Origin: Elusimicrobiota bacterium | GTDB lineage: Bacteria > Elusimicrobiota > Elusimicrobia > UBA1565 > UBA9628 | Direction: 5' to 3' | DNA length: 64,000 nucleotides | NCBI GenBank assembly: GCA_036676805.1 | Contig: JAKFCD010000110.1 | Location: 66,378 to 130,377 of the forward strand | Shown: in pieces, positions 4,061 to 21,030 of the stretch | Layout: each line of letters opens with the position of its first letter | How positions within the stretch are numbered: the stretch's first letter is position 1 | Notes under the pieces: generated by a model | Databases searched by the model: none | Told to the model about the DNA's origin: nothing | What the model saw: the letters and a program-made list of their open reading frames with translations, nothing else | Made by a program: the position numbers and the translations under genes

Positions 4061-4061
4061 C

Positions 4062-6533: not shown

Positions 6534-6787
6534 CCGACTGCCCCACGACGCCGGAGAGACTTTCAACGCTGGAGGCCAAGACCGACCGCGTCCTCGAGGA
6601 GTTGACCATTCTGCGCGGCTCGTTCACCGATTTGGAAAAGCATCTCATCAGCAACGCTACGGAGATCGAGCGTATGAAGGTCGAGATCAATCTGGTCAAG
6701 CTCATCGGCGGCTGGATTTTCGCGCCCTTGATCGGGCTTCTCGGCACGGGAAGCGTTCTCGCGGTCTTCTATGCGCTGAGAAAATAG
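6530..6787 (+). CDS. small phage membrane protein (coiled coil plus C-terminal TM; holin-like candidate)
   Basis: ATGA overlap with upstream tail gene. The 85-aa product has an N-terminal coiled coil and a C-terminal hydrophobic helix 'GGWIFAPLIGLLGTGSVLAVFYAL'. Confidence 0.4.
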   Translation: MTDCPTTPERLSTLEAKTDRVLEELTILRGSFTDLEKHLISNATEIERMKVEINLVKLIGGWIFAPLIGLLGTGSVLAVFYALRK

Positions 6788-6846
6788 CTGCCCGGCTGTC
6801 CCGGAGATCGCCTCGCGCACCCCCTTTTATGGATAGGAGGTGCTAC

Positions 6847-7419
6847 ATGGCCAAGCCCAAGCTGGACATCCCCATCGGCACGACCGGGGCGCGACCCTGG
6901 AAAGGCATCGTCTGGCATCACTCGGCAAGCCCTGACGGCGCGACCCGGGACTGGGATGGGATCGCACGCTACCACACCTCCCACCGCGTCGACTTCGAGA
7001 TCGTCTCTCCGCAGGAGTTTGAGCGGCGGCTCGCGCTCCGACAAGGAGCGAGCTTTCAGCGGCCGTGGAAAGACGTGGGCTACCACGGCGGGACTGAGTT
7101 CGTCGGAGAGAGCCCCGCGTTCCATTGGGGCCGGCGGCTCTCCATGATCGGAGCCCATGCCGGGGTAAAGGACGCCTCCAACCGCTTCAACGAGGAGTAC
7201 CTGGGACTCTGCTGCATCGGCGACTTCGACAAGGCCCCTCCGTCGCCGCAAATGTGGGACTTCAACCTGATGCTAACCCGCGCACTCATGGAGGTCTTCC
7301 GCATCCCGGCCGGCCACGTGATCGGCCACCGCGAGGTGTTCGACCGCCTGGGCGTTCCACGCCAGAAAACCTGTCCCGGTCGGAACTGGGACATGGACTT
7401 TTTCAGGAACGAGCTCTGA
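6847..7419 (+). CDS. N-acetylmuramoyl-L-alanine amidase (amidase_2/PGRP family) endolysin
   Basis: AGGAGG lies 6 nt before ATG 6847. 'IVWHHSASP' and 'TCPGRNWD' motifs are characteristic of zinc amidase_2 (T7 lysozyme/PGRP fold). Lysis-cassette context. Confidence 0.7.
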   Translation: MAKPKLDIPIGTTGARPWKGIVWHHSASPDGATRDWDGIARYHTSHRVDFEIVSPQEFERRLALRQGASFQRPWKDVGYHGGTEFVGESPAFHWGRRLSMIGAHAGVKDASNRFNEEYLGLCCIGDFDKAPPSPQMWDFNLMLTRALMEVFRIPAGHVIGHREVFDRLGVPRQKTCPGRNWDMDFFRNEL

Positions 7420-7730
7420 TGGGCGAGCTCAAACGGCTGACCCTGACGCTCGCGCGAAAGACGCTCGGAAGCGATCTCGCGCAGAACCTGATCCGGGACC
7501 TCAAGTCTCTGAGGGCGCTGTGGAATTGGATTTACATGGCCCTCTACGTCTGGATCTGCGTCTGGACGGTCTTACACCACCCGGATGCCATCCCGACGGT
7601 GGTCACGGTGACGGGCGGGGTGGTGTCGGTCATCTTCAGCGGCTACGTCCTGAGCCGCACCTACGAGAAGGTCAAAAACGGCGGGAATGGCCTGCCGCAC
7701 AACGAGGAGGAGAATGGGAATAGCGATTAG
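7419..7730 (+). CDS. holin-like membrane protein
   Basis: Start overlaps the amidase stop (TGATG). 103-aa product has two hydrophobic helices ('ALWNWIYMALYVWICVWTVL', 'VTGGVVSVIFSGYVL') and a charged C-terminus. Confidence 0.45.
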   Translation: MGELKRLTLTLARKTLGSDLAQNLIRDLKSLRALWNWIYMALYVWICVWTVLHHPDAIPTVVTVTGGVVSVIFSGYVLSRTYEKVKNGGNGLPHNEEENGNSD

Positions 7731-8313
7731 GCTGTTCGGAGTCGCGACGAGCGTCGTGTTCTTCGCCGTCCGGCGACCCAAGGAAGCCGCGGTTGTCTTG
7801 CTGGCCGCGCTCCTCGCGATGACATTGTGGAGGCTCGAGCGCGAGAAGAGTCACGCGCGAGAACTCGCCGCCAAGCTCGAGGGCCTGCCGCCCAATACAA
7901 AGCAGGTGGTGACGGTCCACCGCAACCACGTCATCACCAAATGGCGCGATGGGCCGACCAAGATCGAGTACCGCGACCGCTACCTGCCGCCCGAAGGCCA
8001 CGTCGAAGTCGTGACCAAGATCGATGAACCGGAAAAACCACCCGAGATCGTCATCAAAGACCGCGGATTCACAAGCCGCCTCGGCGCTGGGCTTGTCTAC
8101 TCCGGCGAACCGCTGCCGATGCTCGATTTGAAATGGGCCTACTGGCGGCGATACAGCCTGCTGCTCGGGATGACGCCGGCATTCGGAGGTTTGGGCGTCT
8201 CTCGCCATATCGATGACTTCACACCATTCAGCAATCTGGAACTCGTGGGCCTCGGTGGATTGGACTGGCGTGGCGGCCCCCGCGCCGGCATCGGGCTTCG
8301 CCTGAGCTTCTAG
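7714..8313 (+). CDS. putative Rz-like spanin / lysis accessory protein
   Basis: GGAGGAG RBS before ATG 7714. N-terminal TM helix, then a coiled-coil 'WRLEREKSHARELAAKLEGL' region. Last gene of the lysis cassette. Confidence 0.35.
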   Translation: MGIAIRLFGVATSVVFFAVRRPKEAAVVLLAALLAMTLWRLEREKSHARELAAKLEGLPPNTKQVVTVHRNHVITKWRDGPTKIEYRDRYLPPEGHVEVVTKIDEPEKPPEIVIKDRGFTSRLGAGLVYSGEPLPMLDLKWAYWRRYSLLLGMTPAFGGLGVSRHIDDFTPFSNLELVGLGGLDWRGGPRAGIGLRLSF

Positions 8314-8314
8314 G

Positions 8315-8330
8315 CCTCGACTCGTCGAGG
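8315..8330 (+). terminator. hairpin (cctcgac-tc-gtcgagg) after the lysis cassette, followed by an AT-rich promoter-like spacer
   Basis: Perfect 7-bp stem with a 2-nt loop immediately after the 8313 stop. The downstream 80 nt is markedly AT-rich ('ttacttctatcgccaaatttgccataattttccaattctttcg') in a GC-rich genome. Confidence 0.3.
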
Positions 8331-8409
8331 ACGCGTTACTTCTATCGCCAAATTTGCCATAATTTTCCAATTCTTTCGTCACAGAACCGCTATGTAGGAG
8401 ATTTGTGCC

Positions 8410-10944
8410 ATGGGCCGAGGCCGCGAGCTAGAGAGCAAGAAGCCAATCGAGCAGTACGACCACGCGGGCAAGACTCGAAAGAACAACCCTCCCGTCGGCC
8501 TGGTCACGGCCGATACCGAGAAGGCCGACTCCGACAAGAAAACTTACGCATACGACCCGCACATCGACCCTCGCCTGGATTGGGCAGGGAAGAAGGAGCA
8601 CACGTCCTTCGAGGTGCCGACGGTCTCCCTTCACGTCCACGAGCGCATTGACCCAAAGACGATCATCGAAGCCGTGCGTCGCAAGAACGGCAACGGCCAG
8701 ATGCAGTTGCCGCTGTTCGAGTCCCCGAAAGAGAACCCCCCGCTCCGCGAGGCGCTAGACTTCTACAAGCACTCGCACAACTGGTCTAACCGCCTGATTG
8801 CCGGCGACTCGCTGCTCGTTATGAACTCCCTCATCGAGAAGGAGGGTATGGCCGGGCAACTTCAGATGATCTACATCGACCCGCCCTACGGCATCAAGTA
8901 CGGCTCGAACTTCCAGCCGTTCGTCAACAAACGGGATGTGAAGGATGGCAAGGACGACGATCTGACTCAGGAACCCGAGACCATCAGGGCCTTCCGGGAT
9001 ACCTGGGAACTCGGGGTCCACTCGTACCTAACCTACTTGAGGGATCGCCTCTTGCTGGCAAAGCGCTTGCTGGCCGAGAGTGGCTCTTGCTTCGTTCAAA
9101 TCTCCGACGAGAATGTTCAGCGCGTCCGCCTCCTAATGGACGAAGTCTTCGGCGCAGAGAATTTCTGTTCTCAAATCATCTTCCGAAAGACCACCGGGAA
9201 GGGAAGTGCAATGCTTGACAATACGTACGATGTCCTCCTGTGGTATGCCCGCGATAAAGCCCAAGCGCAGAAGCGGTTTCGGCGCATGTATTTTCTGCGC
9301 AAGCGCTCCGACGATGACAATTACCGGTTCGTCGAGGAACAGAATGGATCTAGACGGACCCTCAAAAAGCAGGAGTGGGAGCAGATCGATTCACTCGTCG
9401 ACCTCAAAATCTTCAGCGCGAATCCTCTGACGTCTCAGTCAGCGAGTTCTACAACCCTCTTTAATTATAAGTTCCAAGGAAAGGTCTTTTCCCCCGGCAA
9501 GGGCGGATGGAAGACGAACCTGGAGGGAATGAAGCGCCTCGAAGCCGAAAGGCGCCTCATGGGAATCGGGAACACTCTAAGATTCATCCGGTACTATGAC
9601 GACTTCCCGTATCAAAGCTTCAGCGATATTTGGGACGACACGCGACAGAGCGGGTTCGGAGAAGCAAAAATCTACGTCGTCCAGACGATGGCCCGGGTGG
9701 TTGCACGCTGCATTCAAATGACCACAGATCCGGGCGACCTGGTCTTCGATCCCACCTGCGGGTCTGGAACTACCGCTGCCGCTGCTGAACAATGGGGCCG
9801 GCGCTGGATTACTTGCGATACGTCCCGGGTCGCCATCAGCCTTGCGAAGCAACGGCTCATGACGACCTTGTACGACTACTATGAGTTGGCCCACCCTGAA
9901 GAAGGCGTCGGTAGCGGTTTCAAATACAAGAGGGTGCCGCATGTAACCCTCAAATCAATTGCGAATAGTGAGCCGCCGACTCCTGAGACTCTATATGATC
10001 AACCGCTTCCGAATGCCACTAGAGCTCGCATCACGGGCCCATTTACGGTAGAGGCAGTTCCATCGCCCGTCGTTAAGCCTCTCTCCGAGGTCCAACAAGA
10101 ACAGGCGATTAGCGATGGTTCCCTGTCTCGCGCCGGTGCCACCTCGCGGCAAGCTGACTGGCGGGCGGAGCTCCTACAGACCGGAATCCGAGGCAAGGGC
10201 AAGCAGTCCATTGATTTCTCGCGAATCGAACCCCTCCCAGGGACTCGCTGGCTACACGCAGACGGGGAGACAAAAGGTTCGAGCCCTGAGCGAGTCGTTG
10301 TGTCCTTCGGCCCAGAGCACGCACCTCTCGAGCAGAAGCAGGTCGAACTGGCATGGGAGGAGGCGCGAAAGTTGAGCCCCAAGCCGTCCATGATCGTCTT
10401 TGCCTCTTTCCACTTCGACCCCGAAGCAGCCAAGGACATCGACGAGCTCACGAAAGATAAGACCGGCATGACGTTCCTTAAGGTCCAAATGAACACGGAC
10501 CTCCTGACTGAGGATCTCAAGAAACAGCGCTCCAGCAACCAGTCATTCTGGCTCATGGGCCAGCCCGACGTCACCGTCCGAGAAATCAAGAAGGGCGAGG
10601 ACAAGGGGAAGCATCAAGTTGAGGTACACGGGTTCGACTACTACAACACAAAGACGGGCACCATCGAGTCTGGCGATACGTCCAAGATTGCCGTGTGGAT
10701 GCTGGACACTGACTACGACGGTCGGAGCCTCTACCCCCGTCAGGTATTCTTCCCGATTGCGGGAGAGAAGGATGGATGGGCTCGTCTAGCGAAGAATTTG
10801 AAGGCGGAGATCGATCGAGACCTCATCGAGGCCTACCGCGGGACAATATCGTTACCGTTCGACCTGGGCAAGCATAAGCGCGTTGCCGTCAAGATCGTTG
10901 ACGACCGCGGAATCGAGAGCCTCAAGGTGATCGAGGTCGCCTGA
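8410..10944 (+). CDS. mod: Type III restriction-modification system Mod subunit (beta-class N6-adenine DNA methyltransferase)
   Basis: Motif IV 'IYIDPPYGIKYG' near aa 150 precedes motif I 'VFDPTCGSGTTAAAA' near aa 450, which is the beta-class order. 844 aa. Directly coupled to the res gene. GTAGGAG RBS. Confidence 0.8.
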   Translation: MGRGRELESKKPIEQYDHAGKTRKNNPPVGLVTADTEKADSDKKTYAYDPHIDPRLDWAGKKEHTSFEVPTVSLHVHERIDPKTIIEAVRRKNGNGQMQLPLFESPKENPPLREALDFYKHSHNWSNRLIAGDSLLVMNSLIEKEGMAGQLQMIYIDPPYGIKYGSNFQPFVNKRDVKDGKDDDLTQEPETIRAFRDTWELGVHSYLTYLRDRLLLAKRLLAESGSCFVQISDENVQRVRLLMDEVFGAENFCSQIIFRKTTGKGSAMLDNTYDVLLWYARDKAQAQKRFRRMYFLRKRSDDDNYRFVEEQNGSRRTLKKQEWEQIDSLVDLKIFSANPLTSQSASSTTLFNYKFQGKVFSPGKGGWKTNLEGMKRLEAERRLMGIGNTLRFIRYYDDFPYQSFSDIWDDTRQSGFGEAKIYVVQTMARVVARCIQMTTDPGDLVFDPTCGSGTTAAAAEQWGRRWITCDTSRVAISLAKQRLMTTLYDYYELAHPEEGVGSGFKYKRVPHVTLKSIANSEPPTPETLYDQPLPNATRARITGPFTVEAVPSPVVKPLSEVQQEQAISDGSLSRAGATSRQADWRAELLQTGIRGKGKQSIDFSRIEPLPGTRWLHADGETKGSSPERVVVSFGPEHAPLEQKQVELAWEEARKLSPKPSMIVFASFHFDPEAAKDIDELTKDKTGMTFLKVQMNTDLLTEDLKKQRSSNQSFWLMGQPDVTVREIKKGEDKGKHQVEVHGFDYYNTKTGTIESGDTSKIAVWMLDTDYDGRSLYPRQVFFPIAGEKDGWARLAKNLKAEIDRDLIEAYRGTISLPFDLGKHKRVAVKIVDDRGIESLKVIEVA

Positions 10945-13757
10945 TGACCGGCAGCGGGACAATCGACCAACTCATCAAGAACTCCCCGTACAAGGAGCCG
11001 ATGTGTTATTGGTCCTACGATCGGGAGACGCGTTCGTTTAACCTCGTTGAGGGTAAGCGTCGGCCCGCAGGCTACGTGCGGGCATCAGAGAGTTCCCGCT
11101 CCTTCGACGACCCTGGGGAATTCATTGAACTGCCCCTCGTCAACAAGATCCGCGACCGTGTAAAGGCCTGGCGCGAACATCCCCACACGCCCTATGCAGG
11201 AACGACAGGGATCACCCGTCGACTCCTTGAGCACTGGCGCGACCCCTCTCAGCGGGACTCCAATCAGCGCCTGTTCTTCTGCCAACTCGAGGCCATTGAA
11301 ACCCTGATCTGGCTCGCCGAGGCCCCTCCCTCCGAGCGCCAGGGGATCGAGGTGCCCGGCGACGGCGGCCCTTTCACCCGCGTTTGTTCCAAGATGGCAA
11401 CCGGTTCGGGAAAGACGACGGTGATGGGGATGATTATCGCCTGGCAGGTGCTGAACAAGGCCACCTATCCCCAGGATAAGCGTTTCTCGAAGAACATCCT
11501 GATAGTCGCCCCAGGGTTAACGGTGAAGAGTCGTCTCCGAGTGCTGATTCCCGCCGGGGCCGATAACTACTACGAAGAGTTTAATCTAATTCCGCCCGGG
11601 CTTCACGATAAGCTGCGAACCGCCAAGGTGCTCATCCACAATTGGCATGCCCTGATGCCCCTTGACCCAAACGCCGGGCCGCGGGTCATGAAGAAGGGAG
11701 CAGAGAGCGACGAGGCCTTTACCCGGCGCATCCTGGCCGACATGGCCTCCGCCAGCGGCTTACTGGTGATCAACGATGAAGCTCACCATGCCTGGCGTGT
11801 GCCGCCCAAGTCCACGATCAAGGGTATCTCGAAGGACGAAATCGAGGAGGCCACCCAGTGGGTTGGCGGCCTCGACCGCATCCACAAGACGAGAGGAATC
11901 CTCCGTTGCTTCGACCTGACAGCAACCCCCTTCGCGCCCACTGGGAAACGGAGCGGCGAGGAGACTCTATTCGACTGGATCGTCAGCGACTTCGGACTCA
12001 ACGACGCCATCGAGGCCGGCCTCGTGAAGACTCCCCGCGTTGTAATCCGCGACGACGGCGTTCCCGACGCCAGGACCTACAAGTCCCGCCTCTACCACAT
12101 TTACATGGACCCGGAGGTCAAAGACGACCTCAACCGCAAAGCCGAGGCCCACGAGAAGCTGCCCGACCTGGTGATCAATGGGTACTACCTCCTGGGCAAG
12201 GACTGGCTGGAGACTGCCAAGGACTGGAGCAAGCGGGGATTTCCCACGCCGCCTGTCATGATCTCGGTCGCCAACCGAACGGAGACGGCGGCCCGCATCC
12301 AGTTTGCCATTACGCGCGGGAAGATCCGCATTGACGAGCTCAAGGCTCCGGACAAGACCCTCCACATCGACTCCAAGGTGCTGGACGAGGCCGAGGCGCT
12401 GGCGGAACCGGTGACCATCCGCGCAAACGAATCGGCGGACGATGAGACCGAGGACGACGAAGCTCCCATCAGGAAGCTTTCCAGAAAGGAGCAGGCGGAG
12501 TTGCTAAGGCGTAAGGTCGATACCGTCGGTAAGCCGGGACAGCCCGGCGAGCAGATCCAGAAGGTCATCTCGGTTGGGATGCTGTCCGAGGGCTGGGATG
12601 CGAAGACTGTGACGCATATCATGGGGCTTCGCGCCTTCACCAGCCAACTCCTGTGCGAGCAGGTGGTCGGCCGCGGCCTCCGGCGCACCTCCTACGACGT
12701 GAATCCCGATACCGGGCTTTTCGAGCCAGAGTACGTCAACATCTTCGGGGTCCCGTTCACCTTTCTGCCCCATGAGGGAGGCGATGGGCCGCCTCCGCCT
12801 CCGCCTCCGCCAAAAACTCGGATCGAGTCCCTGCCCGAGAATGTCGAGTTTCAGATTTCCTGGCCGAATATCGTGCGGATCGACCACGAGTTCCGGCCGC
12901 AGCTTGCGCTGGACTGGCCCAAGATCAAGCGCCTCACGATCAATGCCAACGACACGCGCACGCTGGCCGAACTCGCACCAGTGGTCGAGGGAAAGCCCGA
13001 CGCCACGAAGGTCACGGAGATAGACCTCGAGGATCTGGGCCGCAAGTTCCGCATGCAGAAGGTGATCTTCGAAGTCGCCGGCGACATTTTCGACCAGATG
13101 AAGCCCGGCTGGAAGGCAAACCGAGAGTACTTGCTGGCGCAGCTCATCAAACTTGTCGAGCAGTTCCTCACAAGCAATAAGCTGGACATCGATCCTCCGT
13201 TATTCAACCAGGATGATCTCAGACGGCGCATCCTCTTAACCTTGAATATGTCCAAGATCGTCCAGCACATCTGGGAGGCGATCCGGTTCTCCAACACGGA
13301 GGCGCTCGCTCCCGTCTTCGACACAGAGTGCCCCGTGCGGTCAACCGGGGACATGCGGCCGTGGTTCACCGGAAGGCCCTGCGAGCACACGAGGCGCTCC
13401 CATATCAGCCACTGCGTCTACGACAGCACCTGGGAGGCGAGCGAGGCCTTCAAGCTCGACCACGACAAGAGCGTCGAGGCGTGGGCCAAGAACGACCATC
13501 TCGGCTTCCAGGTCCTCTATATCTTCAACGGGGTCGTGCGGAAGTATTACCCCGACTTCATGATCCGCCTCAAGAGCGGCAAGATGCTGGTCCTCGAGGT
13601 GAAGGGGCAGGACTCCCAGGAGAATCGCACCAAGCGCGAGTTCCTGAAAGAGTGGGTGGAGGCCGTCAACGCCCATGGCGGCTTCGGGACATGGGCATGG
13701 GACGTCTCCCTCCAGCCGAAGGACTTGGCAGGGATACTTCTACGCCACAGCCGATGA
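10944..13757 (+). CDS. res: Type III restriction enzyme Res subunit (SF2 DEAH helicase plus C-terminal PD-ExK endonuclease)
   Basis: Walker A 'MATGSGKTTVMG', motif II 'VINDEAHHAW', and a C-terminal nuclease motif 'YYPDFMIRLKSGKMLVLEVKG'. Start overlaps the mod stop. Confidence 0.85.
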   Translation: MTGSGTIDQLIKNSPYKEPMCYWSYDRETRSFNLVEGKRRPAGYVRASESSRSFDDPGEFIELPLVNKIRDRVKAWREHPHTPYAGTTGITRRLLEHWRDPSQRDSNQRLFFCQLEAIETLIWLAEAPPSERQGIEVPGDGGPFTRVCSKMATGSGKTTVMGMIIAWQVLNKATYPQDKRFSKNILIVAPGLTVKSRLRVLIPAGADNYYEEFNLIPPGLHDKLRTAKVLIHNWHALMPLDPNAGPRVMKKGAESDEAFTRRILADMASASGLLVINDEAHHAWRVPPKSTIKGISKDEIEEATQWVGGLDRIHKTRGILRCFDLTATPFAPTGKRSGEETLFDWIVSDFGLNDAIEAGLVKTPRVVIRDDGVPDARTYKSRLYHIYMDPEVKDDLNRKAEAHEKLPDLVINGYYLLGKDWLETAKDWSKRGFPTPPVMISVANRTETAARIQFAITRGKIRIDELKAPDKTLHIDSKVLDEAEALAEPVTIRANESADDETEDDEAPIRKLSRKEQAELLRRKVDTVGKPGQPGEQIQKVISVGMLSEGWDAKTVTHIMGLRAFTSQLLCEQVVGRGLRRTSYDVNPDTGLFEPEYVNIFGVPFTFLPHEGGDGPPPPPPPPKTRIESLPENVEFQISWPNIVRIDHEFRPQLALDWPKIKRLTINANDTRTLAELAPVVEGKPDATKVTEIDLEDLGRKFRMQKVIFEVAGDIFDQMKPGWKANREYLLAQLIKLVEQFLTSNKLDIDPPLFNQDDLRRRILLTLNMSKIVQHIWEAIRFSNTEALAPVFDTECPVRSTGDMRPWFTGRPCEHTRRSHISHCVYDSTWEASEAFKLDHDKSVEAWAKNDHLGFQVLYIFNGVVRKYYPDFMIRLKSGKMLVLEVKGQDSQENRTKREFLKEWVEAVNAHGGFGTWAWDVSLQPKDLAGILLRHSR

Positions 13758-15865
13758 AGGTACAGACCCGAAAGGTTCTCCTGCCGAAGAGCGCGCGACC
13801 AAGTCCGGTGGCGTCGATACCTACATGGACCATGCTCGAGGCCGGCGATCTTCCGGTTCGCCAACTCGCGGCCTTTGCTCTGCGGGAAGGCCGGAGACCT
13901 CGGCCGATCTATACTGCCCACAAGTGGTTTGCGAGACGCCTGGGATGCGTCTTTCGAGCGATTCTCATTGGGGCAACCTCTAAGCCGAAGGACGATTTTT
14001 GGGCAGCCTACTACGGGGATGCCAACCTCAAGACACTCAAGGTCCTGGACCCGTTCGTCGGCGGAGGGACCTCTGTCGTCGAAGCTTCCCGCCTAGGTGC
14101 AACCACATTCGGAACCGATGTCGATCCCGTCGCATGCGCAGTGACGAGACTGGAACTTCACGCGGGATTGCTCCCCGACCTTAAGCCAGCTCTTGCGCGC
14201 CTTCAAGAGACAGTGGGAAAGAATTTGAGCCCGTACCACAAGACCCGTGACAGTTCTGGCCAAACCCATACCGTCCTCCATCACTTTTGGGTTCAGGTCG
14301 TGCGGTGCGCTGATTGCAGACACCAGTTCGAGGCACACCCAAATTTCCGCCTTGCCGAAGATGGCAAACATCAATGGGCATTCTGCTCGGCCTGCCACGA
14401 AATCCACAGACTTCCTGCAGCCCAGAACTCTTTCCGCTGCGCCAAGTGCGCCAATGAGACAGAGATCGATGCCGGACGAGTAGTTTATGGCACCGTCGAA
14501 TGTCCGAAGTGTCGGCTCCGGGAGCCATTGATCGAAATCGCGCGTCGAACGACCCGGCCTCCCCATTGGCGGATGTTCGCAAGCGAGGTTATTCCCGAGC
14601 AGAAGGGAACCCGCGCAGTGCCCATGCGCCTGAGAAAGTTCCTGCGGACGACGGGCTTCGATGACTCCCTGTACGAGGATGCCCATAAGGCACTGAGGAG
14701 ATGGAAACGGCGGCACCCCGGTCTCTTGCCCACCAAGGCGATCCGCGCGGGGCGGACCGACTCTCGACTTATCGACTACGGTTATCGAAAATGGACCGAC
14801 CTCTTCAACGCCCGGCAACTTCTTCACCTGTCCATGCTGGCGGAGGCGATCAGGCAGTTTGAGGGTCCCACCCGAATGGCGTTGTCGATGGCCTTTAGCG
14901 ACCATCTGACAACGAATTGTCTTCAGGCCTCGTATGCCTCGGGCTGGCGACGGCTGACTCCACTGTTTGGCGTCCGAGCTTTTCGCCATGTGCCTCGCCC
15001 AGTCGAAATCAACCCTTGGTCCGATGGCACCGGCCGTGGCACTTTCCCAAATACGATTCGCGGCCTGGCTCGCGCGGCCGAGTTTGCCCGAAACCCGAAA
15101 GAGCCGTACCGTGGTGGATTCCGACAGGTATCAGTCATCCCAGCGGATGACCCGCCTCTAATCACCAATACGGCGGCACAAGGACTAAATTTCCTGGAGG
15201 ACGAGAGCATAGATATCGTCCTAACGGACCCCCCGTACTTTGACAACATTGCGTACTCAGAACTGGCAGAGTTCTTTGTTCCCTGGCTCGAGAATCTCGA
15301 CGTGATCAAGCGCCGCGGAACGCGAGAGACAATCATGCTGCATGGGCTCGGCGGCAAGCGCGGCAAGGATCGCACCCTCGACAAGTACACTACCGGGCTC
15401 GGGGGATGCTTTCGAGAGGTCGCGCGCGTCTTGAAGCCAACAGGCCTCGTCGCATTCAGTTTTAGACATGCCGTTCCTGAGGCATGGCTTGCCCTAGCTA
15501 ATGCCATTGCATCCAATCCACTTAGAGTGGCGCAGGTACTGCCCGCGCCAGGAGAGGCCGGGGTAGGACTGCATGTCCACGAGGGCTCCGGCGTTTGGGA
15601 TGCCGTGTTCGTTCTTCGAAAAAACTCCCGGCCGCGATCCTCAAACGAACTGCGAGTCAGCACCCCCCAACAGCGTCAGGTGGATAGAATGGTCACCGCC
15701 TGGAAGAAAAAGCTGTATGGTGCGCCCCTTCCCTTCACCAAAATTGATCAACTCGCCCTAAGAAGAGCGTGTCTAATTTCGGCAGCCCTCATCTCGCGGG
15801 ACGCAAAGACCTCGGCTCAGCCAGGGACTCGTCTGCGAGATCTTTTGTCCGAACCCAAGGATTAG
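13754..15865 (+). CDS. second N6-adenine DNA methyltransferase (DUF1156-like, with CxxC zinc-ribbon insertion)
   Basis: ATGA overlap with res stop. Motif I 'VLDPFVGGGTSVVEASRLGATTFGTDVDP' is N-terminal. A Cys cluster follows (CADCRH...CSACH...CAKCAN...CPKCR). Motif IV 'IVLTDPPYFDNIAY' is C-terminal. The ORF-track start at 13328 is rejected because it lies inside res. Confidence 0.7.
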   Translation: MKVQTRKVLLPKSARPSPVASIPTWTMLEAGDLPVRQLAAFALREGRRPRPIYTAHKWFARRLGCVFRAILIGATSKPKDDFWAAYYGDANLKTLKVLDPFVGGGTSVVEASRLGATTFGTDVDPVACAVTRLELHAGLLPDLKPALARLQETVGKNLSPYHKTRDSSGQTHTVLHHFWVQVVRCADCRHQFEAHPNFRLAEDGKHQWAFCSACHEIHRLPAAQNSFRCAKCANETEIDAGRVVYGTVECPKCRLREPLIEIARRTTRPPHWRMFASEVIPEQKGTRAVPMRLRKFLRTTGFDDSLYEDAHKALRRWKRRHPGLLPTKAIRAGRTDSRLIDYGYRKWTDLFNARQLLHLSMLAEAIRQFEGPTRMALSMAFSDHLTTNCLQASYASGWRRLTPLFGVRAFRHVPRPVEINPWSDGTGRGTFPNTIRGLARAAEFARNPKEPYRGGFRQVSVIPADDPPLITNTAAQGLNFLEDESIDIVLTDPPYFDNIAYSELAEFFVPWLENLDVIKRRGTRETIMLHGLGGKRGKDRTLDKYTTGLGGCFREVARVLKPTGLVAFSFRHAVPEAWLALANAIASNPLRVAQVLPAPGEAGVGLHVHEGSGVWDAVFVLRKNSRPRSSNELRVSTPQQRQVDRMVTAWKKKLYGAPLPFTKIDQLALRRACLISAALISRDAKTSAQPGTRLRDLLSEPKD

Positions 15866-15880
15866 CCGGGGAGAATCAAG

Positions 15881-18800
15881 GTGCCATACCTTACCAAACA
15901 GGTCATCTCCAACTATCTCAGAAGCGAATGCCGGCGCAGGCTTCGCCTCGATCTCTCCCCTGACAATCAACGCTATCGAGCTGAACGTACTGCCCAAGCC
16001 ATGCCACCCGAGGCAGTCGGTCGGCCTGGCCTTCGGGCACTCGCCGCTGCAGGGACAGAATGGGAGGAGTCGAAGCTAAACGACCTCGTTCAAACCCTTG
16101 GCACGGCCGCTCTCATCGGAAATTCAGTTCGAACGACCACGGGCTCACTCCGCTTTTCCGAAACCCCACTATCCGGCGTCATTGGGCGCGCAGCCCCAGG
16201 CACATTCATCGTCCAGGGGGAGTATGACCTGGGTCCGGGCTTCGAGGCCGCCCTGGGAATCGCCTCGCTTCGCACAGCGCATGCGCTCAACTACGGGCAA
16301 CTTCGACCCGATCTCATCCAGGTACTCGCTCCCGGCACGCAATCCCACGCAGTACGGCCCGATGGGACGATCATCGATGTGCCACAGGGCGATCAACGTC
16401 TCCCACTGCGCGTAATTGAGATCAAGTTAACCGCCGAGCCTTCCGTCCCGTATTTCGTCGAAGTCACATACTACTCCATGGCCCTCGCCGCATGGCTGGC
16501 AGACCATCAGCTCGACAATCGCTTCTTTGTCGTTCCGGAAGCGGCGGTATGGCCGGGCTCGCACGAGGCCTCCGCCGTCGTGCGTTTTCAATCCGAATGC
16601 CAGGCACAGGGGATTACGCCCACCTCGGCCCAGTTGCTGCAAGCCCTCGCAGGTGACCTCGAGATCGGCGAATTTAGCGTCTTCGCTCCTCGGCTGAGGC
16701 GATTCTTCCAAGAGGAATTGGCGGCCGTACTCGGGCAACCGTGGCGGCAGCTCGAATGGCATGTTGATAACCGTTGCATCGGATGCGAGTACTTGGGATA
16801 TCCATGGCCTGGGACGACCCCGAATCCCGATCACTGTTGGCCCATGGCCAATACGCAGGATCACCTGAGCCGGGTGGCTTTCGTCTCTCGGGGAGCTCGG
16901 AACGCCCTTGAGGAAAATCTGATTGGGAGCGTCGCCGCGCTCGCGGGCACTCAGCCGGACAACGTCGCATTCGATTCACATCATGTGCTCCGCGCGACAC
17001 GCACCGTCGTCGCCGGAAGGGCCCAGTCATTGACCACGGGACAGGCGGCGGTGCCCCCTCAGGCCGGCACCTCTGCCGTGATGCCTCGGTGGACGGATCT
17101 CCGCATTTACCTTACCGCCGACTTCGACATCGGTAGTGGTATAACCATGGCGTTCGGCTTCAAAGCTGTCTGGGGCGTCGCTCAGAATCGCATCCAACAG
17201 GGTCAGCAGCACTTCCACGTCTGGCAAGCGCAGGCATTCCCCATAGACCAGAGGGACCCCGCAGTTGAGCAGCGGGAGCTTCTTCGGTTGCTAGATGCCG
17301 TGGACCAGGCGCTTCGATTTGCGACGGCGACAATTCCGACCGCAACCGTTCAAGTCTACGTCTGGGATTCCCTGACCTATGATCATCTCGTCCGAGTCAT
17401 CGGCCGCCATCTCACATCGATCATTCAAAACCGCCTGCTATCTCGTCTCGCCTGGCTGTTCCCGCCGGATACTCTTGTCGCCAACCCTGACATTTCGGAC
17501 CGGTTTTGCCCCATCACGGTCTTACGCGACGTCATGCGCGCGGTCATCGCTGCGCCGGTTCCCCATTACTACAGCTTGCTCAGCGTGGCCCGCGAATACC
17601 ATTCTGCGAGAACCCAGCCTCCATTTGATCGGTTTGATGTTCCGACGTTCTTTGAGGACCCCCTGTCTGACCAGGTCCCCTCAGAACGCGCCCACGAAAT
17701 ATGGTCGCGGGCTACAGGCGCACGGCCGTGGAACGTCCAACTTCGCAGTCTTGAACGAACTGTACAAGTGAAGCTGAATGCCATCGAGAGCATCGCCGAT
17801 AGGCTCGGGGCAGACCTTCAGGGGCAGCTCAATCAAACTGCTCCTCGGATCACCGATCTGCGAGCCCCGAGCCTGCCGCGGAGGATGGCAGATGACGCGA
17901 GGCTATGGTCAATCTTTGCGAGGCTGAATGTGGCATTGGAAGAACTTGAAATAGAGAAGACCCATGCAATGCCGCCGCATGAGCGGGAAGCCCGTTTCAA
18001 AAGTGCTTGGCTGACGAATCGTCTCGCGGGCCCGGCTGCTCAGCAGGTACTTACGCGCTTCGGGCTACAGCCGGCCTCTAACCGACTCGTTTTCACCATT
18101 CGGCCGGGCTCTCGCGAGGTCAAGGCGAAGGAAGGAGACTTTACCTTTGCGCTGGCTCCTGCAAGCGCTCCAGGGTTCCTCGGGCGACGAATTAGAACTG
18201 TAGCAGGGGCAGTTCAACTTCCACTCCCGGGAACCAATGACGAATGGAAGCCCATGGAGTATGTCACCGGCGTCTCCGTCCAGGCTATAGATCGGGATGC
18301 AGGCCACATCGTTCTTGATCTAGACACAAGATGGGCTCCCGTCTTCTTTGCACTCGAGCAAGCCGGTGTTGTGAATTTCTCAACAGATGTGATGCTTGAT
18401 CCGGTCCACAGGGATTTCTTCACGAAACGTCTGGACAAGACTCTCAACGCCATCGGAAATCCTCCCATCGCAATCGCGCATCCTGGCGTCGGACAAGCAA
18501 TCGGGCGAGCGAGGCGAGCGACCGCAGGAGCTGTCAGTCCAGTGGCAGATGTCTACTGGAATTCCGCAGCGCTATATGGATCTCAAGTTCAACGCAACCT
18601 GCCGCCGATTCAGACGCTGCTTTCCGCAAGTCCTGACTTCGACCTCAATCAGAGCCAATGGCAGGCGTGGCAGGAATCCCTGACTCATCGCCTGCGCCTG
18701 ATCTGGGGGCCGCCCGGCACGGGGAAGAGCCGCACGCTTCGAACAATCGTGATGGGCGCCTTTCATGAAGCCTCTCAGCAAGGGCAGCAGATGCGTGTCT

Positions 18801-20146
18801 TGGTTACCGGCCCGACCTACGAGGCTATTGACAACGTACTCCTCGGCGTCGCCACAGCTCTTATGGGAACGGGGCCTCTCGCGCTGCAACAAACACTCAT
18901 TGCGAGACTTCGTTCCACGACGCGACCGTCGGACTCGGCAGTGCCTCAGCAGATCGATGTTCCGACTGATCCATCGTCTCAGGCATTCCAGCAGTTGCGC
19001 GGCCGACTACAGCAGGCGCAGGGGCTGACACTCGTAGGGGCCCCGGTCCAACAGGCATACAAATTGATGGATTCAGCGGGACGGCCAGTCCAGGAGTTTT
19101 TCGACCTCGTCATCGTCGATGAAGCCTCTCAGATGGATGTCGCCACTTCGACTTTAGCGCTCGCAGGACTTGCGACAGGCGGCTCGGTTGTTGTCGCTGG
19201 AGATCCTCAACAGTTGCCGCCGATCCACCAGGCGGAGCCGCCGACAGGACTCGAGCACATGGTCGGGCCTCTCTTCAAATATCTGCGAGACCGCCACAAC
19301 CTAACTCCCTTGGTTCTGGATGTTAACTACAGATCGTGCTCAACCATCGTTGAATTGGCCCACGCGGCGAATTACCCAAGAACGCTTCAATCCTATTCAC
19401 CCAATCTTCGGCTCGAAGTTACTACGCCCATTCCAGCCGCTGCAGCCCCTCCTCAGGGATGGCCGCCTGGTTTGCTCTGGACTCCAGAATGGGCAGCGCT
19501 CCTCGATCCTGCGCAGCCAGCAACCTGCTTCATCTATCGGGAAGGACGCAGCAGCCAGTGGAATCAGTTCGAAGCCGATGCCGTCGCATCGCTCGTCTGG
19601 TTGCTTGCGAACCGGGTGGGCGACCACCTGGTGGACGAGCGAATCGCCCCAACTGGGAACATCCAGCCTACGATTGGGCTTCCATACTCCATGCAGGATT
19701 TCTGGAATAGGGGGATTGGGATTGTAACTCCGCACAGAGCGCAGCAGGCTCTCATTGTGAATCGTCTCCAATCGCTGTTCCCCGGTCCAGACGGTCGGGA
19801 TATCCGCGAAGCAGTGGACACGGTCGAGCGATTCCAGGGCCAACAACGGGACGTAATGTTGGCGACCTTCGCATTGGGAGACCCTGACGCCATTGGCGAT
19901 GAGGACGAATTTCTTCTCAGCCTCAATCGCTTCAACGTAATGGTGTCGCGGGCTCGCGCGAAGCTTATCGTATTCGCTTCGCAAGAGGTGGTCGACCATA
20001 TGTCTTCCGACATGAACGTCTTGCGTCAGTCGGCGCTACTAAAAACCTTCGTGGAGCCCTTCTGCAATCAGGGGAGGCCGATGATCCTCGGCCACATGCG
20101 CGCGGCCGGACCTCATCAGGTTCCGGGACGCTTCCGTTGGCGCTAA
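15881..20146 (+). CDS. DNA2-like nuclease-helicase: N-terminal RecB/PD-(D/E)xK-type nuclease plus C-terminal SF1B (Upf1/DNA2-like) helicase, 1421 aa
   Basis: GTG start 9 nt after GGGGAGA. Helicase motifs 'LIWGPPGTGKSRT', 'LVIVDEASQMDV', 'LDVNYRS', 'TVERFQGQQRDV', 'NVMVSRARAKLIVF'. N-terminal 'RPDLIQV ... VIEIKLTAE ... YYSMALAAW' resembles PD/ExK/QxxxY nuclease motifs. Confidence 0.7.
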   Translation: MPYLTKQVISNYLRSECRRRLRLDLSPDNQRYRAERTAQAMPPEAVGRPGLRALAAAGTEWEESKLNDLVQTLGTAALIGNSVRTTTGSLRFSETPLSGVIGRAAPGTFIVQGEYDLGPGFEAALGIASLRTAHALNYGQLRPDLIQVLAPGTQSHAVRPDGTIIDVPQGDQRLPLRVIEIKLTAEPSVPYFVEVTYYSMALAAWLADHQLDNRFFVVPEAAVWPGSHEASAVVRFQSECQAQGITPTSAQLLQALAGDLEIGEFSVFAPRLRRFFQEELAAVLGQPWRQLEWHVDNRCIGCEYLGYPWPGTTPNPDHCWPMANTQDHLSRVAFVSRGARNALEENLIGSVAALAGTQPDNVAFDSHHVLRATRTVVAGRAQSLTTGQAAVPPQAGTSAVMPRWTDLRIYLTADFDIGSGITMAFGFKAVWGVAQNRIQQGQQHFHVWQAQAFPIDQRDPAVEQRELLRLLDAVDQALRFATATIPTATVQVYVWDSLTYDHLVRVIGRHLTSIIQNRLLSRLAWLFPPDTLVANPDISDRFCPITVLRDVMRAVIAAPVPHYYSLLSVAREYHSARTQPPFDRFDVPTFFEDPLSDQVPSERAHEIWSRATGARPWNVQLRSLERTVQVKLNAIESIADRLGADLQGQLNQTAPRITDLRAPSLPRRMADDARLWSIFARLNVALEELEIEKTHAMPPHEREARFKSAWLTNRLAGPAAQQVLTRFGLQPASNRLVFTIRPGSREVKAKEGDFTFALAPASAPGFLGRRIRTVAGAVQLPLPGTNDEWKPMEYVTGVSVQAIDRDAGHIVLDLDTRWAPVFFALEQAGVVNFSTDVMLDPVHRDFFTKRLDKTLNAIGNPPIAIAHPGVGQAIGRARRATAGAVSPVADVYWNSAALYGSQVQRNLPPIQTLLSASPDFDLNQSQWQAWQESLTHRLRLIWGPPGTGKSRTLRTIVMGAFHEASQQGQQMRVLVTGPTYEAIDNVLLGVATALMGTGPLALQQTLIARLRSTTRPSDSAVPQQIDVPTDPSSQAFQQLRGRLQQAQGLTLVGAPVQQAYKLMDSAGRPVQEFFDLVIVDEASQMDVATSTLALAGLATGGSVVVAGDPQQLPPIHQAEPPTGLEHMVGPLFKYLRDRHNLTPLVLDVNYRSCSTIVELAHAANYPRTLQSYSPNLRLEVTTPIPAAAAPPQGWPPGLLWTPEWAALLDPAQPATCFIYREGRSSQWNQFEADAVASLVWLLANRVGDHLVDERIAPTGNIQPTIGLPYSMQDFWNRGIGIVTPHRAQQALIVNRLQSLFPGPDGRDIREAVDTVERFQGQQRDVMLATFALGDPDAIGDEDEFLLSLNRFNVMVSRARAKLIVFASQEVVDHMSSDMNVLRQSALLKTFVEPFCNQGRPMILGHMRAAGPHQVPGRFRWR

Positions 20147-21030
20147 AACCGCGGATGCGCCCTCTGGCAAGCCTTCTTCAGATGCTCGGCTGTGACGTGG
20201 GTGTAGCGGGCCGTCGTCAGCACGGACGCGTGACCCAATAGCTCGGCAAGGGTCCGCAGGTCGACGCCTCCCTGGAGCAGATGCGTCGCGCAGCTATGGC
20301 GGATCTGATGGGGCGTCACGCGGCCAAGAAGCCCAGCCCGGCGCGCTGCCGCCCCAAGACGCCTCCCGAAGCCGCCACGAGTGATCGGACCCCGGCCTCG
20401 CCCATTGAGAAACACGACGTCGCCCGTCGCCGGGAAGCGCGCGGCGCGGGCATCAAGGTAGCGCCCCAGGGCGGCCCCAGCGCGGGGCCCGAAGGGGACA
20501 AGGCGCTCCTTTGAGCCCTTCCCCGTCACGCGCGCCCAACCCTCCCGGAGGTCTACCTGCCCCAGGCGCAGGCCGGTCAGCTCCGAGACCCGCATCCCCG
20601 TGGCGTACATGAGCTCGAGCATGGCGTGGTCGCGCAAGGCCGCGAACTTGCCCCCCACAGGCGGGCGAAGCAGGCGATCCATGCCCTCCTCGGCCAACGG
20701 TTTCGGGATTCGCTGCTTGAACCGCGGCAGCCTCATCCCGCTGGTCGGGTCGGCCGGGACGAGGCCGACCGCGACCAGATGGCGATGGAACTGTCGGACG
20801 GCCATCGCAGCGATGAATAGCGACGCGGACTTGAGCCCGGCGTCCCGGCGGCGCTCGTGGTAGGCGAGGACGTCGCCGCGGGTGGCAGTGGCCACCGCCC
20901 GGCCATTCTCCCGCAGGTGGGCCACGTAGGCCCCGAGCTGATACCCGTAGGACAGGCAGGTGTTGGGGGCAAGCCCCCGCTCCACCCGCAGATGCTGCAC
21001 GAAAGCGTCGACCAGCGGATCAGTCGCCAT
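20143..21030 (-). CDS. site-specific tyrosine recombinase, XerC/XerD family (295 aa, no phage-type arm-binding domain)
   Basis: N-terminus 'LVDAFVQHLRVERGLAPNTCLSYGYQL'. C-terminal catalytic region 'RHSCATHLLQGGVDLRTLAELLGHASVLTTARYTHV'. The size and N-terminus match Xer-type recombinases rather than phage integrases. Confidence 0.8.
   Translation of the reverse strand: MATDPLVDAFVQHLRVERGLAPNTCLSYGYQLGAYVAHLRENGRAVATATRGDVLAYHERRRDAGLKSASLFIAAMAVRQFHRHLVAVGLVPADPTSGMRLPRFKQRIPKPLAEEGMDRLLRPPVGGKFAALRDHAMLELMYATGMRVSELTGLRLGQVDLREGWARVTGKGSKERLVPFGPRAGAALGRYLDARAARFPATGDVVFLNGRGRGPITRGGFGRRLGAAARRAGLLGRVTPHQIRHSCATHLLQGGVDLRTLAELLGHASVLTTARYTHVTAEHLKKACQRAHPRF

Follow-up and report, generated by a model that had tools for sequence, protein, structure and literature searches.

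An operon in an Elusimicrobiota prophage that probably stacks a Type III restriction-modification system and a candidate methylase/Bad-like nuclease-helicase pair

In the 64,000-nt stretch of DNA analysed here (the window), four co-directional genes at positions 8410-20146 place a Type III modification and restriction gene pair directly before a second methyltransferase gene and a gene for a large nuclease-helicase. Do the four products work as a single machine, or do two defence systems share one operon? The initial annotation had proposed both, that is, either a stacked two-layer restriction system or a new four-component system. Taking all our observations together, the best explanation is that the operon probably stacks two self-sufficient modules of the restriction-modification (RM) type in the cargo slot of a prophage.

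Operon layout and prophage setting

The joins between the four genes, which we read directly, agree with those given in the initial annotation, namely a 1-nt overlap, a 4-nt overlap and a 15-nt gap that holds a ribosome-binding site. Gene 1 (8410..10944, + strand, 844 aa) has an AGGAG 8 nt 5' of its ATG, and its TGA stop (10942-10944) overlaps by one nucleotide the ATG of gene 2 at 10944 (cctgATGacc, hence TGATG at the mod/res join). Gene 2 (10944..13757, + strand, 937 aa) stops at TGA 13755-13757, which overlaps by 4 nt the gene 3 start (gccgATGAag). Because of this ATGA overlap with the res stop, the start of gene 3 is the ATG at 13754, and the gene is 13754..15865 (+ strand, 703 aa) rather than the longer mechanical open reading frame from 13328. 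In agreement with this start, relatives of gene 3 are 674-721 aa long, and the called gene is exactly 703 aa in a sibling contig with 92% identity, in which the ATGA coupling between res and gene 3 is also kept. Gene 3 ends with TAG at 15863-15865 and is followed by the ribosome-binding site GGGGAGA (15868..15874, + strand), 6 nt before the GTG at 15881 that opens gene 4 (15881..20146, + strand, 1421 aa). Relatives of gene 4 begin with M-P-x-L-x-K, which agrees with this start as well. Judging from these junctions, it is plausible that all four genes are carried on one transcript, and the four-gene arrangement is also present in the locus L150. Scans of the region around the operon for promoters, terminators and repeats yielded no informative sites.

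The operon occupies the cargo slot of a prophage, between the lysis genes and the integrase. Upstream lies a phage tail module with the tape measure and tail proteins (117..7419, + strand; PHROG tail and lysis matches) and, at 6829-7419 on the same + strand, an amidase endolysin (Pfam Amidase_2). Downstream and outside the system, a XerC/D-like tyrosine integrase (20143..21030, - strand; Pfam Phage_integrase, 2.8e-40; phrog_1 integrase) is convergent with gene 4 and overlaps its stop by 4 nt, the same arrangement being found in L150. The GC3 of genes 3 and 4 is 0.63 for both, compared to 0.72 and 0.80 for genes 1 and 2 and 0.83-0.85 for the phage genes.

A Type III pair, a second methylase and a DNA2-like enzyme

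Catalytic motifs are conserved in all four operon proteins. By sequence, genes 1 and 2 are a conventional Type III system and an ordinary member of that class. As in RM systems of the EcoP15I/EcoP1I type, a beta-class DPPY Mod is followed, in the same operon, by an overlapping Res that combines an SF2 ATPase with a C-terminal PD-(D/E)xK nuclease. The gene 1 product is a Mod of the N6-adenine methyltransferase type, with matches to Pfam N6_N4_Mtase (1e-32, spanning profile positions 2-220 of 221) and to PADLOC MTase_III (PDLC03632, 4.8e-161), and with its DPPY at aa 157-160 (nt 8878-8889). It differs from the classical enzymes by its length, the C-terminal third being without assignment, and is otherwise ordinary. 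The gene 2 product matches the NCBIfam model NF046055 “BPTD_3080 family restriction endonuclease” over its full length (1114.7 bits, cut-off 800) as well as Pfam ResIII (2.8e-8). It carries the SF2 ATPase motifs GSGKT (aa 154-158), DEAH (278-281) and QVVGRG (573-578), and a C-terminal nuclease with PD...EVK at aa 870-888. In this first module, Mod would methylate its own site and a Mod-Res complex would use ATP to find and cut unmethylated DNA; Type III enzymes hemimethylate an asymmetric site and, for cleavage, require ATP and two unmethylated sites in inverse orientation.

Gene 3 encodes an amino-methyltransferase of the DPPY type, as judged from its motifs and profile matches. The motifs are HKWFARR (aa 56-62), motif I LDPFVGGGTS (aa 98-107) and motif IV TDPPY (aa 491-495), and four CxxC between aa 185 and 253 are predicted to bind zinc. 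While the profile matches fall among DNA methylases (phrog_10183, Type II, PglX and DUF1156), the best structural matches are tRNA m2G/m6A methyltransferases, which makes an RNA substrate conceivable. For genes 2 and 3, searches of PDB sequences gave no relative with a solved structure.

The label “DUF1156-like”, given to gene 3 in the initial annotation, holds only loosely. Gene 3 shares with the DUF1156 methylases of DISARM class 1 (DrmMI) and of the Hma or 'BREX-related' systems (PMC12839542) partial profile matches around DPPY and the N-terminal H-K-W-F-A-R-R. However, it is ~250 aa shorter and its DUF1156 scores lie far under cut-off, with 91.7 bits for NCBIfam DUF1156_antiphage (cut-off 1000), and HmaB gave only a partial match of 60.7 bits. 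Like the DUF1156 methylases of DISARM and Hma, gene 3 has a helicase-nuclease effector as its partner and an RM-like layout, but this partner is an SF1B Fe-S enzyme and not an SNF2 or DrmA helicase, and the DUF499/BrxC ATPase, DrmB and DrmC are absent. The DrmA, DrmB, DrmC and DrmD models of DISARM class 1 match none of the four operon proteins, nor is there among these four any DUF499/BrxC-like or SNF2 match, although Hma/BREX-related systems are made of a DUF499 ATPase, a DUF1156 methylase and an SNF2 helicase-nuclease. Since all matches are partial and sub-threshold, we rejected membership of gene 3 in the DUF1156, DISARM or Hma groups.

Gene 4 belongs to a family of ~1400-1500-aa proteins with conservation over their full length. 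Its N-terminal part (aa 1-330; 15881..16870, + strand) is a Cas4/DNA2-type PD-(D/E)xK nuclease with catalytic D144 and E180-x-K182. Four invariant cysteines, one before (17) and three after (299, 302 and 319) the catalytic core, are placed as in 'iron-staple' 4Fe-4S nucleases. At aa ~400-600 (17078..17680, + strand) a putative DEDD/RNase-H-like 3'-5' exonuclease fold has conserved D414, D416, E463, D496 and H562. In the secondary structure of the AF2 model, aa ~617-900 (17729..18580, + strand) form a pair of long helices and then a beta-rich domain; from the known Upf1/DNA2 architecture, these may be the accessory stalk and barrel domains found in Upf1-like helicases. The C-terminal part (aa 914-1391; 18620..20053, + strand) is an SF1B (Upf1-like) helicase core (Pfam AAA_11, 4e-21; AAA_12, 5.6e-18), with invariant Walker A GTGKS at 946-950 and Walker B DEASQ at 1080-1084, and the PDB sequence matches of gene 4 are Sen1, DNA2, Upf1 and IGHMBP2. 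The initial description of a DNA2-like nuclease-helicase is thus backed by both structure and homology. Nevertheless, gene 4 is not an orthologue of eukaryotic or archaeal DNA2, from which it differs by the extra exonuclease-like domain, by its methylase partner and by a distribution that is sporadic and mobile rather than one of a replication enzyme.

With the single-gene or two-gene defences based on Upf1-like helicases, Mokosh (MkoA/MkoC), Hhe and DpdJ, gene 4 has in common the AAA_11/AAA_12 core (PADLOC DpdJ, 9.8e-50; MkoA, 8.3e-30), but these systems use other nuclease types and partners, and none has a dedicated methylase of the gene 3 type. There was no full-length match of gene 4 to MkoA/MkoC, Hhe or DpdJ, the matches being confined to the helicase core, and its scores against the NCBIfam models Hhe and ProA were far under their cut-offs. 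With only partial, sub-threshold matches, gene 4 was rejected as a member of Mokosh, Hhe or Dpd.

A further counterpart is Bad, a DNA2-like helicase-nuclease of Geobacillus stearothermophilus, which has an Fe-S cluster, is processive in the 5'-3' direction and loads on a junction or end. The gene for Bad adjoins a DNA methylase, and its authors proposed in 2020 a new, methylase-linked restriction class (Wilkinson et al. 2020, PMC7430649); the follow-up literature to that paper contains no restriction test. By BLASTP, gene 4 is collinear with a 1273-aa protein of Methanoculleus chikugoensis (residues 4-577, 3e-23; residues 922-1365, 8e-42), so that the homology takes in the full length, central domain included. 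The relatives of this protein come from Methanoculleus, Methanohalobium and Competibacteraceae, which are taxa in the Bad alignment of PMC7430649. On these alignments to Methanoculleus family proteins, with Bad itself compared by description, gene 4 is remotely related to Bad over its full length, and it forms a separate subfamily because its identity to the Methanoculleus relative is only 25-31%. Both enzymes have the same three-part plan, with an N-terminal Fe-S 'iron-staple' RecB/Cas4-type nuclease (D150 in Bad, D144 in gene 4), a large central domain and a C-terminal SF1B helicase (K815 in Bad, K949 in gene 4), and both genes adjoin a methylase. In contrast to Bad, gene 4 is ~175 aa longer and has as partner a 700-aa Zn-ribbon methylase, whereas the partner of Bad is Type III-Mod-like; the central domain, undescribed in 2020, is in gene 4 assigned a DEDD-exonuclease-like fold. 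Bad-clade members of archaea and Competibacter are without an adjacent methylase, so a helicase-nuclease of this kind can exist without one.

Linkage of genes 3 and 4 across genomes

We assembled 78 non-redundant loci with a gene 4 homologue from many phyla, the metagenome and viral scans using as query the family-specific central domain of gene 4. A gene-3-type methylase abuts the gene 4 homologue on the same strand in 64 of them, upstream in 59 and downstream in 5. Thirteen of the other 14 loci are unreadable upstream (mostly contig ends, and a truncated match in L137), and the last one has a D12 Dam-type methylase at that place (L004). The linkage of the two genes is therefore 64/65 among readable loci. 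In the reverse look-up, two gene 3 homologues on megabase contigs were each followed by a 1457-1464-aa AAA_11/12 protein. We also scanned genome contigs with the generic Walker-A peptide WGPPGTGK; this returned mostly unrelated helicases, and at least six loci among the matches listed (L005-L010) had full-length or near-full-length relatives of gene 4. The gene 3 and gene 4 distances are correlated (r = 0.81; Spearman 0.42). In a search for a gene 4 segment co-varying with the methylase, as might be expected of a contact or target-recognition surface, sliding partial correlations peaked at only 0.35, in the N-terminal nuclease domain, a signal that physical linkage to the adjacent gene could explain equally well.

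Remote relatives of gene 4 (27-34% identity) adjoin methylases of other families. On Bradyrhizobium and Rhizobium plasmids, a convergent 370-aa methylase lies beside the relative (of the N6_N4 type in the one scanned), and in Fibrella it is a D12 methylase. Such swapping of methylase partners is typical of RM systems. Genes 3 and 4 thus have what broadly defines RM, that is, a methyltransferase and a nuclease encoded together as a conserved pair with exchangeable methylase families.

The gene 4 family is sporadic across phyla; of 1.84 billion representatives, its members make up only ~400 clusters at 50% identity. The neighbours of the gene 3-4 pair include Hachiman and Kiwa, BREX BrxL/PglZ with a DrmD-like SNF2, pAgo with a Type I HsdR, TIR, dGTPase and T4SS genes, and the pair is found on three IMG/VR viral contigs; cultured phage genomes contained no full-length relative of gene 4. 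No other flanking gene family is common to more than 9 of the 78 loci. In particular, a BPTD_3080 Res was near the pair in only two (L139 and L086) of the 49 loci whose flanks extend for at least 5.5 kb. L139 has the order g4-g3-res-mod and a 412-nt gap; the Res of L086 lies ~3.8 kb from the pair on the opposite strand.

These data bear on both readings of the initial annotation. A stacked two-layer system gains support, since the pair recurs in almost every readable locus, nearly always without Type III genes, and its codon composition differs from that of genes 1 and 2. A new four-component system does not, as the pair is not accompanied by any further conserved gene and the Res of L139 and L086 differ from that of the window in order, strand or spacing. 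The same annotation had envisaged that genes 3 and 4 might turn out never to be linked with each other or with Type III systems, or might belong to an already named defence system. They are in fact tightly linked, and no defence model or named system in PADLOC v2 or NCBIfam 2026 claims the pair; literature searches gave neither a description of a methylase/Bad-like pair nor any experiment on this family.

Possible functions of the pair and rival explanations

Taken by its genomic context, the gene 3-4 pair is reasonably likely to act as an RM-like defence, and we read it as a candidate RM variant. In this second module, the gene 3 methylase would mark host DNA, most likely with N6-methyladenine because of its DPPY motif, and the gene 4 enzyme would engage DNA without this mark. 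By analogy with Bad, gene 4 would first enter at a single-strand/duplex junction or end and translocate 5'->3' while unwinding; the Fe-S nuclease would cut the displaced strand, and the DEDD-like domain may trim the other polarity. Gene 3 might provide protection alone (Type II logic) or might also, as a subunit of a complex, recognise the site (Type I/III/BREX logic). What counts against a restriction role is that loading at a junction or end sits poorly with an intact unmethylated duplex as target.

To our knowledge, the known ATP-dependent restriction enzymes (Types I, ISP, III, CglI and the BREX/DISARM relatives) rely on SF2 translocases or sliding switches, neither of which unwinds the DNA. 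The methylase/Bad-like pair could be a mechanistically new RM class, in which an unwinding SF1B motor, equipped with a DEDD-type exonuclease as well as an Fe-S nuclease, degrades DNA not marked by a dedicated Zn-ribbon methylase, although we hold this only tentatively. If true, a methylation-controlled processive SF1B helicase with two nuclease folds would be a different physical route to destroying foreign DNA, and Bad, a biochemically characterised bacterial DNA2-like enzyme, would gain a cellular role. The pair is compact (6.4 kb) and occurs across many phyla in defence islands and prophages, which makes it directly clonable and testable. For annotation, the four genes should be recorded as a Type III system and a separate two-gene candidate system, and not as a new four-component system.

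That the four genes are two independent modules is very probable. The opposite view, in which they form one integrated system, would have the Type III Mod/Res recognise and nick or cut unmethylated DNA, the Bad-like enzyme act as obligate downstream shredder, and the second methylase serve as a second self-mark or as a regulator of the effector. Start/stop overlaps and a ribosome-binding site do join all four genes, and the arrangement is kept in L150. Moreover, cleavage by a Type III enzyme would create the junction or end that Bad requires for loading. The ATGA coupling kept in the sibling, together with the presence, in two distant lineages (L139 and L086), of a BPTD_3080 Res no more than 10 kb from the pair, may be an association beyond chance, and in L005 a remote gene 4 relative follows Type III-like mod/res. 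Type III loci with an accessory helicase-nuclease also have a precedent in the UvrD-Cas4 fusions beside mod/res (Hudaiberdiev et al. 2017, PMC5704561), which like gene 4 fuse a Cas4-like nuclease to an SF1 helicase and of which L005 has an example. However, these fusions have an SF1A UvrD helicase with a C-terminal nuclease, the window contains none of them, and gene 4 travels with its own methylase, not with Type III genes. The pair is without a BPTD_3080 Res in 47 of the 49 loci with readable flanks, the two exceptions are laid out differently, GC3 is unlike between the two halves, and each half, having its own methylase and its own nuclease-ATPase, is complete by RM logic. We therefore regard an integrated system as quite unlikely. 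Just as improbable is a full coupled reading, that is, a new RM class translationally coupled to a Type III enzyme that makes double-strand breaks and so generates the ends or junctions for the shredder, in a recognise-cut-destroy cascade of four genes.

With two independent modules as the preferred reading, a function outside immunity has still to be weighed for genes 3 and 4. The pair could serve in DNA repair, replication or mobile-element maintenance, for example in methylation-guided end or flap processing as with DNA2 and AddAB, or as a post-segregational addiction pair. DNA2 and Bad act on flaps and junctions, Bad-clade members of Methanosarcina and Competibacter lie amid housekeeping genes without a methylase neighbour, and mobile elements frequently carry the pair. 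RM systems are themselves known to show addiction behaviour. The sporadic spread across phyla in only ~400 clusters, the repeated vicinity of known defence systems, the foreign composition of the pair within the prophage cargo slot and the swapping of methylase families make it more like defence than like core repair genes, so that a non-immune role is unlikely. Even less probable is that the pair targets RNA, with gene 3 methylating tRNA or rRNA and gene 4 acting as a Upf1/Mokosh-like RNA helicase-nuclease. Despite the tRNA methyltransferases among its structural matches, gene 3 is placed by its profiles with DNA methylases, the characterised relative Bad acts on DNA, and both Cas4-type Fe-S nucleases and exonuclease folds of the PolB type belong to enzymes that act on DNA.

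Organization of the operon and its position in a prophage

By reading the sequence directly, we confirmed that the region 8410–20146 holds four co-directional genes with tight junctions, as claimed in the initial annotation: the long ORFs, all on the + strand, lie at 8410–10944 (gene 1), at 10944–13757 (gene 2), up to 15865 (gene 3) and at 15881–20146 (gene 4). One base is common to the stop of the Mod gene (TGA, 10942–10944) and the ATG of the Res gene, whose own stop overlaps an ATG at 13754 within ATGA. Because of this second overlap, we set gene 3 at 13754–15865 (703 aa) rather than at the longer mechanical ORF from 13328. Its TAG (15863–15865) is followed by GGGGAGA (15868–15874) and by the GTG of gene 4 at 15881. 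Homologues back both starts: relatives of gene 3 measure 674–721 aa, with a called gene of exactly 703 aa in a sibling contig, and relatives of gene 4 start with M-P-x-L-x-K. Judged from these junctions, the four genes likely form a single transcript; a promoter and terminator scan around the operon gave no useful sites.

Upstream of the operon lies a phage tail module (117–7419; tape measure and tail proteins) that includes an amidase endolysin (6829–7419). Downstream, a convergent XerC/D-like integrase gene (from 20143) overlaps the gene-4 stop, and from about 24.7 kb the sequence turns to host genes, among them CtaA (24722–26101) and a xanthine-dehydrogenase-type cluster. Given this order, the operon looks like prophage cargo, located near the right end between the lysis genes and the integrase, a position consistent with protection of the lysogen. 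The prophage extends beyond the window on its left side, and no attachment site was found. Between endolysin and operon, an ORF that can be read as 7687–8313 (+, 208 aa) or as 7672–8382 (−, 236 aa) is unmatched in Pfam, PHROGs and PADLOC, and may encode a regulator or an accessory lysis function.

Within the operon, G+C is 54–62%, compared to 62–77% in the rest of the window. GC3 is 0.63 in both genes 3 and 4, 0.72 in gene 1, 0.80 in gene 2 and 0.83–0.85 in the phage genes, while neighbouring phage and host genes together span 0.78–0.93. From GC3, the upstream and downstream halves of the operon seem to be of separate origin, and neither resembles the prophage.

Gene 1 matches Type III Mod (Pfam N6_N4_Mtase, 1e-32; PADLOC MTase_III, 4.8e-161) and has DPPY at aa 157–160; its C-terminal third (aa ~520–844) is without a Pfam match and lies beyond residue 520, where the best PADLOC Type III model ends. 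Over its full length, gene 2 passes the curated NCBIfam equivalog "BPTD_3080 family restriction endonuclease" (1114.7 bits for a cut-off of 800), and we could read GSGKT, DEAH, QVVGRG and a C-terminal PD...EVK nuclease motif in it. By these matches, genes 1 and 2 are assigned to an ordinary Type III system, of a kind already known.

The methylase and the nuclease-helicase of the downstream half

In gene 3, motif I (LDPFVGGGTS, aa 98–107), four CxxC pairs (aa 185–253) and motif IV (TDPPY, aa 491–495) do not vary across an alignment of 32 sequences, and all are conserved at 95% or more among 62 homologues. Its best structural matches, tRNA m2G/m6A methyltransferases, keep RNA alive as a possible substrate, but the sequence profiles point to DNA methylases (phrog_10183 at 4.9e-80; partial matches to Type II, PglX, HmaB and DUF1156), and DNA is thus the likely substrate. 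The label "DUF1156-like" proposed for gene 3 holds as far as these partial matches go, but not at the level of the named system, since DUF1156_antiphage gave 91.7 bits against a threshold of 1000 and every other named-system model was also far under threshold. DUF1156 methylases belong to DISARM and to Hma or "BREX-related" systems, together with SNF2 helicase-nucleases and DUF499 ATPases (PMC12839542); gene 3 is no more than remotely related to these, and the other components of those systems are missing here.

The description of gene 4 as a DNA2-like nuclease-helicase proved correct, because it combines an N-terminal iron-staple-type nuclease core with an SF1B helicase. The Upf1-like SF1B helicase (residues 914–1391) was recognized by AAA_11/AAA_12 matches and by PDB sequence matches to Sen1, DNA2, Upf1 and IGHMBP2, and its GTGKS and DEASQ are invariant among relatives. 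Since Pfam has no match in the first 900 residues, we modelled residues 1–910 from a 34-sequence alignment (pLDDT 85.5, pTM 0.79). The alignment places the nuclease core at D144 and D/E180-x-K182, with C17, C299, C302 and C319 invariant and laid out as in 'iron-staple' 4Fe-4S nucleases. A predicted exonuclease-like (DEDD-like) domain follows at about aa 400–600 (D414, D416, E463, D496 and H562 kept). Then, ahead of the motor, a pair of long helices followed by a beta-rich domain (about aa 617–900) would correspond, on secondary structure, to the stalk and barrel of Upf1-like helicases. The family is of moderate size: with a profile of its central domain, 172 clusters (represented at 50% identity) score at E <= 1e-30, and 398 at the looser E <= 1e-3. 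Full-length matches mostly span 1400–1500 aa and carry the domain at about the same position.

Genes 3 and 4 recur as a pair

Loci with gene-4 relatives were gathered from metagenomes, viral contigs and individual look-ups, and scored by tblastn. A gene-3-type methylase abuts the helicase gene on the same strand in 64 of 78 non-redundant loci (59 upstream, 5 downstream). Thirteen of the remaining 14 are unreadable on the upstream side, mostly at a contig end; in one of them (L137), 5 kb of upstream sequence is present but the match begins at residue 121. The sole readable exception, locus L004, has a Dam-type D12 methylase in the methylase position. In the reverse look-up, from gene-3 homologues on megabase contigs, a 1457–1464-aa AAA_11/12 protein came next in both cases (2/2). 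Clustering of all flanking ORFs gave no further conserved partner, the largest flanking family occurring in 9 loci.

The initial annotation had proposed either a stacked two-layer restriction system or a new four-component system. With no extra conserved flanking gene, and with a BPTD_3080 Res in only 2 of the 49 loci with one flank of 5.5 kb or longer, and there in another order or strand, the four-component reading is not supported, whereas the recurrence of the pair, with no regular Type III mod/res beside it, supports the stacked one. In both loci, L139 (5524–21044) and L086 (333–13393), family membership of the Res was confirmed, it lies within 10 kb of the pair, and gene 4 is only 45–46% identical to that of the window. 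The order in L139 is g4-g3-res-mod with a 412-nt gap ahead of res; in L086, about 3.8 kb separate the pair from a Res of opposite orientation. Among the loci compared, the arrangement of the window was found elsewhere only in L150 (Logan SRR22388013), whose positions 1–7969 match window positions 13035–21003 at 92% nucleotide identity in the same res-g3-g4-integrase order. Since this second sample carries it, the element is present in at least one related strain or phage.

It is conceivable that the Type III module and the pair act in synergy inside this operon, because a Type III cut would make exactly the ends that a Bad-like motor needs; the tight ATGA coupling of gene 3 to res and the two other co-occurrences with a BPTD_3080 Res are in line with it, but the comparative data do not require it, and the co-occurrences may be no more than ordinary clustering of defence genes in islands. 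Taking together the linkage counts, the reverse look-up, the lack of a conserved third partner, the rarity of the BPTD_3080 Res and the GC3 split, genes 3 and 4 very probably form a self-contained module behind an unrelated Type III module.

A Bad-like enzyme in a candidate restriction-modification variant

The closest characterised protein to gene 4 is Bad of Geobacillus stearothermophilus, a 1245-aa Fe-S enzyme that binds ss/ds junctions, has ssDNA endonuclease activity, and translocates and unwinds in the 5'-3' direction, processively for more than 4 kb; its nuclease motif is at D150 and its Walker A lysine at K815 (PMC7430649). Its family alignment takes in Methanoculleus, Methanohalobium and Candidatus Competibacter proteins, and according to its authors, bad always adjoins a Type III-Mod-like methylase gene in Geobacilli (PMC7430649); they proposed a new class of restriction, of which we found no test in the follow-up literature. 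Gene 4 is collinear with a 1273-aa protein of Methanoculleus chikugoensis (residues 4–577 at 3e-23, helicase at 8e-42), whose relatives (Methanoculleus, Methanohalobium, Competibacteraceae) fit the taxa of the Bad alignment, which makes gene 4 the representative of a distant Bad-like subfamily. Within the Bad clade, the genes of Methanoculleus, Methanosarcina and a Competibacteraceae MAG have no adjacent methylase where the flank is readable, so that methylase coupling would be a property of particular clades, strongest in that of gene 4.

More remote gene-4 relatives (27–34% identity) are also paired with methylases, of other families: a convergent 370-aa methylase on Bradyrhizobium and Rhizobium plasmids (N6_N4 type in Bradyrhizobium, the sole one scanned) and a D12 methylase in Fibrella. 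Exchange of the methylase family, with the nuclease still paired to a methylase, is the signature of restriction-modification. Neighbours of the pair include Hachiman and Kiwa in one locus, BREX BrxL/PglZ, a DrmD-like SNF2 helicase, pAgo, Type I HsdR, a TIR protein, T4SS genes and an anti-phage dGTPase on a conjugative plasmid, and three copies of the pair are on IMG/VR viral contigs. Genes 3 and 4 get only partial, sub-threshold matches to the anti-phage models of PADLOC v2 and NCBIfam (June 2026), and no named system there claims them. Together, these data lead us to lean towards the pair being a restriction-modification-like defence, as an unnamed candidate variant.

In the mechanism we propose, genes 1 and 2 would work as a standard Type III enzyme, while the gene-3 methylase would mark host DNA, probably as m6A, and the Bad-like enzyme would engage DNA without the mark. 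By analogy with Bad, gene 4 would unwind 5'-3' from a junction or end, its Fe-S nuclease cutting the displaced strand, and the DEDD-like domain may handle the opposite polarity. The role of the methylase could be limited to protection, or it could in addition act within a complex as recognition subunit. What we document here for the pair is how it is conserved, which domains it contains and that it stands on its own; work from 2020 had already foreshadowed its existence. It is a well-defined candidate open to direct testing rather than a system of a wholly new category.

Independently of Bad, helicase-nucleases are known from Type III loci in the form of the UvrD-Cas4 fusion (PMC5704561), which is absent from the window and present in locus L005. 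There (721–14263), a UvrD-PD-(D/E)xK (Cas4-like) fusion is followed by Type III-like mod/res, a PNP_UDP_1 phosphorylase-family gene and a remote gene-4 relative, an arrangement that fits the published association (PMC5704561). In locus L007 (7218–13759), a similar UvrD-nuclease fusion precedes a Bad-like gene, with NERD-UvrD and RecQ genes after it.

The 9-locus flanking family lies next to the helicase gene in L004, L091, L095, L096, L101, L102, L111, L119 and L123; its L004 member is a TIR-domain protein (TIR_2; 14363–15358), directly downstream of the helicase gene on the opposite strand. This family may represent a further defence gene that accompanies the pair within a single subclade. 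In locus L059 (1–9987), the pair is preceded by a DrmD-like SNF2 helicase of 929 aa, a 164-aa gene and a protein of 1175 aa that matches DUF1156 in part; these may represent an adjoining Hma or 'BREX-related' system.
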